Shown: piece by piece, positions 29,481-30,426 of the stretch
Numbering within the stretch: position 1 is the stretch's first letter
How the letters are laid out: each line of letters begins with the position of its first letter
From: Eledone cirrhosa
Taxonomy: Eukaryota
Length of the DNA stretch: 64,000 bases
Direction: 5' to 3'
NCBI GenBank assembly: GCA_964016885.1
Contig: OZ024741.1
Span: 253,642,001-253,706,000, forward strand
Notes under the pieces: generated by a model
What the model was told of the DNA's origin: nothing
What the model saw: only the letters and a program-made list of their open reading frames with translations
Database searches by the model: none
Translations under genes and position numbers: made by a program

Positions 29481-29543
29481 ATTTTATCTGATGAAAGCAC
29501 ACCATAATTTAACTTGGTGTCCTTGAAATATGTGTAATGAAAT
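29481..29543 (+). ncRNA. Hammerhead ribozyme A
   Basis: Helix I ATTTTAT/ATGAAAT; CTGATGA (29488-94); helix II AAG..ACACCA/TGGTGT..CTT; GAAA (29525-28); TATGTG; GUA (cut after 29536). Confidence 0.72.
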
Positions 29544-29737
29544 AAATATGGTTTTATAAATATAGTTTCCATTTGTTAATATATTGTATATTTACTCCAA
29601 TAATTTGTTGAGAGCTTTATATCAGTTATAAAAATATTTGCTTGTTGTATCCCAACAATTTAAATAGAACTTCTACATATATATATATATATTAAAATAC
29701 AAACATTAATAAAATAGATGTTCTTTTGATCAATTAA

Positions 29738-29790
29738 ATTTTATTATATATATTTCAGAGGTACAACAGTACGTCCTCATCAGACAAAAT
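29738..29790 (-). ncRNA. Hammerhead ribozyme B (opposite polarity to A and C)
   Basis: Minus strand ATTTTGT-CTGATGA-GGACGTAC tgtt GTACCTCT-GAAA-TATATA-TA-ATAAAAT; helix III palindrome ATATATAT. Confidence 0.78.
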
Positions 29791-29918
29791 ATAATGATAC
29801 ATGACATACCCTGAGATGTTAAATGGTTAAGATTTAATCAAGGTAGTTTAACTCTTTAATATATATATATATGGTATGTTTTTCATGGGTATGACTCTAT
29901 TTATAAAACAAAAATTGT

Positions 29919-29981
29919 ATTTTATCTGATGAAAGCGTACCAATGTTGTCTTGGTTACCCTTGAAATATATATAATAAAAT
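29919..29981 (+). ncRNA. Hammerhead ribozyme C
   Basis: ATTTTAT-CTGATGA-AAGCGTACCAA tgttgtc TTGGTTACCCTT-GAAA-TATATA-TA-ATAAAAT; perfect 7-bp helix I; cut after 29974. Confidence 0.8.
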
Positions 29982-30363
29982 AAATATGGTTTTATAAATA
30001 TAGTTTCCATTTATTGAATATCATTGAATATTTACTCCAGTAACTTGTTGAGTGCTTTAAATCATTTATAAACATTTATGTTTGTTGGACTTCCAACAAA
30101 TTAAATACCACTTCTACTTTATATATATATATATATATATATATATATATATATATATATATATATATATATATATATATATATATATATATATATATAT
30201 ATATATATATATATATATATATATAAAGTAGAAGTGGTATTTAATTTGTTGGAAGTCCAACAAACATAAATGTTTATAAATGATTTAAAGCACTCAACAA
30301 GTTACTGGAGTAAATATTCAATGATATTCAATAAATGGAAACTATATTTATAAAACCATATTT

Positions 30364-30426
30364 ATTTTATTATATATATTTCAAGGGTAACCAAGACAAC
30401 ATTGGTACGCTTTCATCAGATAAAAT
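30364..30426 (-). ncRNA. Hammerhead ribozyme D (exact inverted copy of C)
   Basis: Reverse complement of 29919-29981 within the palindrome. Confidence 0.8.

Follow-up and report, generated by a model that had tools for sequence, protein, structure and literature searches.

Nested insertion of Penelope-like element ends and a mirror duplication very probably account for four hammerhead motifs of alternating polarity in Eledone cirrhosa

The window analysed here, the whole stretch of 64,000 nucleotides at C2:253642001-253706000 of the 3.0-Gb assembly, contains exactly four hammerhead motifs by motif scan, A(+), B(-), C(+) and D(-). Their arrangement very probably reflects nested insertions of hammerhead-bearing ends of Penelope-like elements (PLEs) from three families into a single TA microsatellite, together with a fold-back mirror, C, of one of the inserted elements, D. 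Three abundant Penelope-like retroelement families are the source of A, B and C/D, which are their terminal repeats (pLTRs); each repeat has copies elsewhere in the genome that are 92-99% identical, and elsewhere each is also linked to open reading frames (ORFs); the inserts are bounded by TA tracts, and because C is identical to D only three distinct motifs (A, B and C/D) are present. The parts of the locus are listed by position in the window, with the basis for each in brackets:

29471..29677, plus strand: element A, a 5'-truncated pLTR with its tail, PLE family A (19 other loci 94-99% identical, with a common 3' end)
29678..29691, no strand: (TA)7 separating A's tail from the 3' end of B (sequence)
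29692..29847, minus strand: element B, a short tail-less pLTR, PLE family B (B pLTRs flank RT/EN ORFs in L073 and L074)
29847..29859, plus strand: last 13 nt of a B-family tail, head-to-head with B (completes a canonical inverted PLE insertion)
29860..29872, no strand: (TA)6-T, left junction of the mirror copy C (sequence)
29873..30119, plus strand: C, a 247-nt exact inverted duplicate of D lacking ~20 nt of D's 5' end (shares all minority variants of D)
30120..30225, no strand: (TA)53, centre of a perfect 600-nt palindrome (repeat and palindrome analysis)
30226..30493, minus strand: element D, a full pLTR with its tail, PLE family C/D (EN/RT pieces upstream in the same orientation in L085 and L086)
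30495..30508, plus strand: 8-nt inverted copy of the 5' start of the C/D family, then TATATA, the right junction of the D insertion (by-eye comparison with other copies)

The palindrome spans 29873-30472 with 300-nt arms centred in (TA)53, and C reads as D's exact reverse complement. In the window, B is one such canonical inverted insert, consisting of a minus-strand tail-less pLTR and a plus-strand 13-nt tail end with TA on both sides; the same 13-nt end precedes (TA)n in 7 of the 10 B tails printed, with variants of it in 2 and a tail that runs on in the remaining one.

Both flanks of the hammerhead stretch are repeat-rich. A LINE 3' fragment at 28467-29082 (minus strand), with a zf-RVT-like domain scoring below cut-off (E=3e-5), abuts a GATA repeat, and a related ORF is present in L078:2-787. 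Two pairs of short direct repeats, at 30546-30630 and 30856-30940 (89% identical) and at 31946-32018 and 32671-32743 (81% identical), probably belong to other interspersed elements, and a (TA)13 run at 31685-31710 with 11-12 nt of mirrored flank is a small case of the mirror pattern seen around (TA)53. Further away, an open frame of 808 aa at 564-2987 (minus strand) has five stretches matching Pfam Cadherin and resembles one large protocadherin exon, and very long 12-, 36- and 27-bp tandem arrays occupy 34278-64000, 11829-16140 and 16805-21491 (plus strand), with Thr/Asn/Ser-rich open frames of 1000-3000 codons that may be mucin-like exons or plain satellites. If these arrays are exons, the hammerhead cluster could be intronic.

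The positions and predicted cut sites of the four motifs, from the motif scan, are:

29480-29544, plus strand: hammerhead A, predicted cut after 29536
29790-29738, minus strand: hammerhead B, predicted cut at 29745
29918-29982, plus strand: hammerhead C, predicted cut after 29974
30427-30363, minus strand: hammerhead D, predicted cut at 30371

On these points the results agree with an earlier note on this DNA, made from the sequence alone, which had reported four motifs of alternating polarity, the same cut positions, and spacings of 438 nt between the plus-strand cuts and 626 nt between the minus-strand cuts. All four are type I minimal hammerhead motifs in which helix I measures 7-8 bp, the cores read CTGATGA and GAAA, cleavage is predicted at TA, and an 8-nt self-complementary stretch takes the place of a stable helix III; at the sequence level, 4 of 4 motifs have what is typical of the PLE type, namely the CUGANGA and GAAA cores, a UH site, both helices I and II, and a helix III region that is palindromic. 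None of the four matched in an Rfam search at either the gathering score or E<=5, and since no Rfam hammerhead model matched, Rfam was not used as evidence in either direction. Folded in isolation, the motifs gave weak structures only (z of -0.2 to -1.9).

Conservation of the structure was examined in 64 distinct motif strings from the fetched loci (L001-L091), which are related rather than independent. Paired positions are kept in 53-63 of the 64 strings, the pair-4 mismatch excepted, and helix II pairs 1-3 and 5-7 in 57-61. Pair 4 of helix II is unpaired in 63 of 64. Unlike reported PLE hammerheads, in which helix II usually starts with G-C, those found here start with A-U or G-U and carry C.C at pair 4 in 51 of 64 strings; the mismatch is perhaps a tertiary contact. 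Two-sided swaps (G-C/A-T and T-A/C-G) occur at helix II pairs 5 and 6, and because these swaps separate families, selection in the parent elements probably maintains the hammerhead structure. The covariation-like helix II differences described previously are therefore real between families, but C and D are not differing modules as had been supposed, being 100% identical. Likewise, the homology between A and C is present but had been understated in extent, reaching 84% identity over ~220 nt rather than the ~140 nt given before.

Each of the three families is represented by many other copies in the genome. DNA searches returned 2543 first-look candidates for C, 1407 for B and 186 for A, and among the 40 scored for each query full-length matches were 93-97%, 96-99% and 90-99% identical, respectively. 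For comparison the best 28 (C/D), 19 (B) and 19 (A) other loci were fetched, and at these loci the copies of each family share a common 3' end that is mostly followed by (TA)n. A same-family inverted partner lies head-to-head with the copy at 16/28 C/D, 7/19 B and 12/19 A loci, the partners stopping at a fixed position of the unit (162 in C/D, 124 in A and 168 in B), and the other copy extends 83-95 nt beyond the partner's stop, mostly with (TA)n after that. All three families thus carry a tail on one of the two inverted ends only and are inserted in AT-rich or microsatellite DNA, as PLEs are. A second of the three families was present within 500 nt at 1/28 C/D, 0/19 B and 0/19 A loci (1 of 66 sampled); an apparent second family beside L003 proved to be an inverted C/D copy cross-matching A. 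As a conservative alternative the earlier note had proposed independent insertions of one small PLE-like family into (TA)n, of which the PLE-like insertions into (TA)n hold; the families are three and not one, B being only 75% alike to C and over 68 columns only, and C is a mirror of D rather than an independent insertion. Further hammerhead families were seen at L017:1950-2930, L021:2271 and L014:1268; they comprise two head-to-head pairs whose palindromic helix III region contains GC, and one motif with a longer helix III.

The linked ORFs, judged from sequence by their architecture and by GIY-YIG and Atlas matches, make the parents Penelope-like elements. In family A, L088 has an inverted pLTR at 1250-1373, a direct pLTR at 2397-2603, a 612-aa ORF from 2648 and a second direct pLTR at 6488-6693; in family B, repeats ~4 kb apart flank broken RT and endonuclease ORFs in L073 and L074; and in family C/D, L085 and L086 have related but truncated EN/RT ORF pieces that are oriented like the repeat and located upstream of it. 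Direct and inverted pLTRs flanking an ORF, the architecture of a PLE, are thus found across these loci. The endonuclease part lies downstream of the RT part, matches Pfam GIY-YIG under the cut-off (E=0.0021, 18.8 bits versus 22.6), and has Atlas neighbours at 0.94-0.95 of which 28-35% of members carry GIY-YIG; together these identify a GIY-YIG endonuclease at the C terminus. The putative RT ORFs had no match in Pfam or PDB sequence searches and were assigned from Atlas neighbours at 0.94-0.97 (HTH_animal, DUF8422 and RVT_1 in 16-32%), tblastn among copies, and sequence motifs, including a YRDD taken to be an RT motif. A Cys-rich linker makes Neptune the candidate clade. Family B elements also contain a repeat at ~160-185 nt spacing within the long 3' region that separates the endonuclease ORF from the pLTR (L074:3305-3847; L073:1790-2356; L078:6442-7021).

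What is described of hammerhead PLEs matches the locus in most respects. Minimal hammerheads in PLE pLTRs, mostly in solo truncated copies and with low cleavage in vitro, are reported in PMC4209133, as are dual motifs ~100-700 bp apart on opposite strands, and opposite-strand PLE hammerheads have been on record since 2014. Inverted 5'-truncated copies, tails and microsatellite bias are described for PLEs in a 2021 study (PMC8557442). The families studied here share the type I minimal hammerhead with a long helix II and a palindromic helix III region inside the pLTR, the predominance of solo truncated copies, dual opposite-strand motifs 100-700 bp apart, the inverted 5'-truncated pLTR, the tail at one end, the AT-rich or microsatellite targets, and the order of a putative RT followed by GIY-YIG. 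They differ from reported PLEs in tails of 83-95 nt versus 30-40 nt, in very high copy number, and in the tail-to-tail mirror, since inverted copies are usually head-to-head; that arrangement is described as the usual one by Arkhipova et al. 2013 (PMC3846280), who name tail-to-tail as the outcome of sense self-priming.

Retrozymes consist of tandem units and are probably PLE-derived, according to Cervera and de la Pena 2020 (PMC7229834) and Li et al. 2026 (bioRxiv 10.64898/2026.07.22.740005). Like metazoan non-LTR retrozymes, the locus is low in GC, has type I hammerheads spaced by a few hundred nt, and is of probable PLE ancestry; unlike those head-to-tail tandems of one unit, the 438 nt from A to C are no repeat unit and hold a foreign element between them. 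No tandem repeat other than (TA)53 was found in 29481-30426, and with A and C in different families a retrozyme reading was discarded.

The clustering of hammerheads is above uniform chance and yet common in this genome. A degenerate 38-letter pattern, matched exactly, occurs 35,839 times in the 3.0 Gb (18,046 plus, 17,793 minus), one per 84 kb, against 0 matches of the reversed control. In the first 100 matches listed, neighbouring motifs are no more than 1 kb apart in 15 of 99 pairs, versus 0.49 expected if uniform; 11 of these are head-to-head, 1 is tail-to-tail and 3 are same-strand, so that opposite-strand pairs account for 12 of 99. A second four-motif run, in the order - + - + with three different sequences, lies at C1:14430377-14431948, and because pairs within 1 kb are common and such a run exists, alternating clusters are not special. 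A literature search covering octopus listed no paper devoted to hammerhead abundance or the C.C mismatch, and the minimal-hammerhead alignments of PMC4209133 may already record the mismatch or cephalopod copies; the number of hammerheads in the genome, together with the conserved helix II C.C mismatch, may be of specialist interest.

The particular arrangement was sought with exact junction patterns, which would miss diverged copies. The B-C junction matched once in the genome, at the locus itself, and the A-B junction twice, the other locus having a longer TA run and a rearranged copy of A; with the B-C junction confined to the locus, there is no recurring cassette. The earlier note had suggested a genome search for recurrence of the A-B-C order as a check on its ambisense ribozyme cassette, and at the level of DNA that idea is not borne out: hundreds to thousands of copies of the modules exist elsewhere, either alone or paired head-to-head within a family. 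It is uncommon for three families to meet within 1 kb, and among tens of thousands of TA-targeted inserts no special cause is needed for it.

The identity of C and D requires an origin of its own. The two share 8 positions that deviate from the commonest letter of the 28 other copies, 4 of the 8 being found in none of them, and the nearest of those copies is 96.3% identical; shared private variants and so distant a next-best copy indicate that C is a local copy of D. That a single active source copy gave rise to both through two retrotransposition events, with opposite priming directions inside one TA run, is scarcely to be expected. C and D do end at the same tail position, and a PLE protein is described as cleaving and extending both strands in vitro (PMC11167929), but no source above 96.3% appears among the 28 best matches, four variants are private to C/D, and priming from both sides of one break should give a head-to-head and not a tail-to-tail product. 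Facing tail ends 6-130 nt apart occur at five loci genome-wide, C/D included (935 tail-end matches, 37 in the control). The other four have arms of ~20-55 nt in which the partner's variants are mirrored, and three of them (L072, L079 and L080) are short mirrors ending on a second TA run. In L080 the 55-nt arm spans the junction of tail and element body, a junction that looks to have arisen in DNA; a DNA template is thereby favoured, and the case for two insertions is again weakened.

It is also very unlikely, if somewhat less so, that A, B and D are real PLE insertions while C is an assembly or library artefact of fold-back at a long TA run. Such an origin would fit the 100% identity of C and D and their centring on (TA)53. 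Contigs of four public runs, compared with 29110-30119 (a stretch that excludes (TA)53 and D), included no A-B or B-C bridging piece among the 32 listed of ~23,000, so that C is not confirmed independently of the assembly; repeat copies swamped this result, and silence in 32 of ~23,000 pieces proves nothing. Against an artefact, non-mirrored DNA resumes on both sides, and the left end of C falls on a second TA run, as at L072, L079 and L080. Larger inverted duplications with arms differing by 2 and 4 substitutions (L094 and L095, respectively) were also found, and their diverged arms argue that inverted duplications are real in this genome and stem from aged events. L094 and L095 (the latter at G000:C1:297563500-297565100) are inverted duplications of whole or partial PLE inserts with flanks, and L095 holds four pLTR copies in the order - + - +, with the strict hammerhead pattern in 2 only. 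Mirrored flanks were present at 8 of 1111 unselected TA tracts, versus 0-2 in 20 random re-pairings; 2 of the 8 adjoin PLE tails, 2 are simple-repeat-like and 4 adjoin other sequence, and since some mirrored TA tracts have arms that did not match the three families, the fold-back process need not be specific to PLEs.

Viroids and ambisense viroid-like circular RNAs carry ribozymes in both polarities. The locus resembles them in that both of its strands bear hammerhead motifs over a span of a few hundred nt; it differs in being composed of DNA repeats of different retroelement families, in having no multimeric unit, in being known here from DNA, and in a strong self-pairing that stems from the DNA palindrome. 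Exact-pattern junction searches revealed no conserved recurring or multimeric unit of the kind that a template for such RNAs would have. A functional ambisense cassette, in which transcripts of both strands self-cleave through same-strand dimers into 438- and 626-nt circles that replicate or regulate, is accordingly most improbable, even though all four cores are intact and A with C, and D with B, are predicted to be able to form an 8-bp dimeric helix III (-3.2 kcal/mol). The 438-nt unit, whose folding the earlier note had proposed, does fold more strongly as a circle than 30 mononucleotide shuffles that keep composition alone (-89.5 versus -63.8 +/- 6.1). Standing against a cassette are the non-recurrence of the arrangement, the origin of its parts in three mobile families of similar young divergence, and the predicted structure of a read-through RNA, in which C and D are locked in a 300-bp hairpin, all 63 nt of each pairing outside the motif. 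Helix I has a probability of <=0.002 in 4 of 4 motifs, also with the plus strand ending before the TA run; the C/anti-D duplex reaches -100.6 kcal/mol; and a perfect hairpin around (UA)53 makes up most of the 626-nt unit. Moreover, the poor in vitro cleavage of PLE minimal hammerheads (PMC4209133) and the dependence of one PLE hammerhead on its protein (PMC11167929) weigh against self-cleavage. The earlier suggestion that the locus is a genomic template for ambisense circular RNAs is thus not supported.

These folds are equilibrium predictions and are silent on co-transcriptional or protein-assisted cleavage. On the minus strand the antisense of C would be made before B, so that D would be trapped before its partner exists, whereas on the plus strand ~400 nt of transcription would precede the trapping of C, making a 438-nt product barely possible. 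There is only a very small chance that, in plus-strand read-through, the A and C hammerheads, which come from different families, act as a heterodimer and cleave ahead of C/D hairpin formation, yielding a 438-nt circle carrying the antisense of B. Were such a circle real, it would be a viroid-like RNA born from transposon debris and a testable route from retroelement to viroid-like RNA.

Nested PLE insertion with fold-back is the explanation we favour, and it would proceed as follows. The PLE endonuclease would nick AT-rich DNA and the RT would prime from both strands, giving 5'-truncated and often head-to-head inserts. Frangieh et al. 2024 (PMC11167929) describe a PLE protein that cuts AT-rich DNA on both strands and extends each of them, a tail defined by two RT start sites, and a hammerhead that needs the PLE protein and is dispensable for insertion in vitro. 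As each insert would end at (TA)n, it would leave a target for the next. A may have come first or independently, B would have been inserted as a short pLTR with its 13-nt tail stub, and D would have entered in minus-strand orientation. Within the self-complementary TA run, a DNA end would then have folded back on itself and used D as the template for 247 nt before rejoining at the left TA. The alternating polarity would be a by-product of these insertions and the fold-back. The hammerheads would normally serve the RNA of the parent element, as dimeric or protein-assisted ribozymes, and at this locus they probably have no role.

As found, the locus is one of many PLE hammerhead clusters in a genome that holds at least 35,839 hammerheads, and in itself it matters little. 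Recurring exact tail-to-tail mirrors at the TA run beside an insertion are a small mechanistic lead, suggestive of fold-back repair where PLEs insert. In animal DNA, ribozymes in both polarities are the normal footprint of PLE insertion, and the locus may serve as a warning to that effect.
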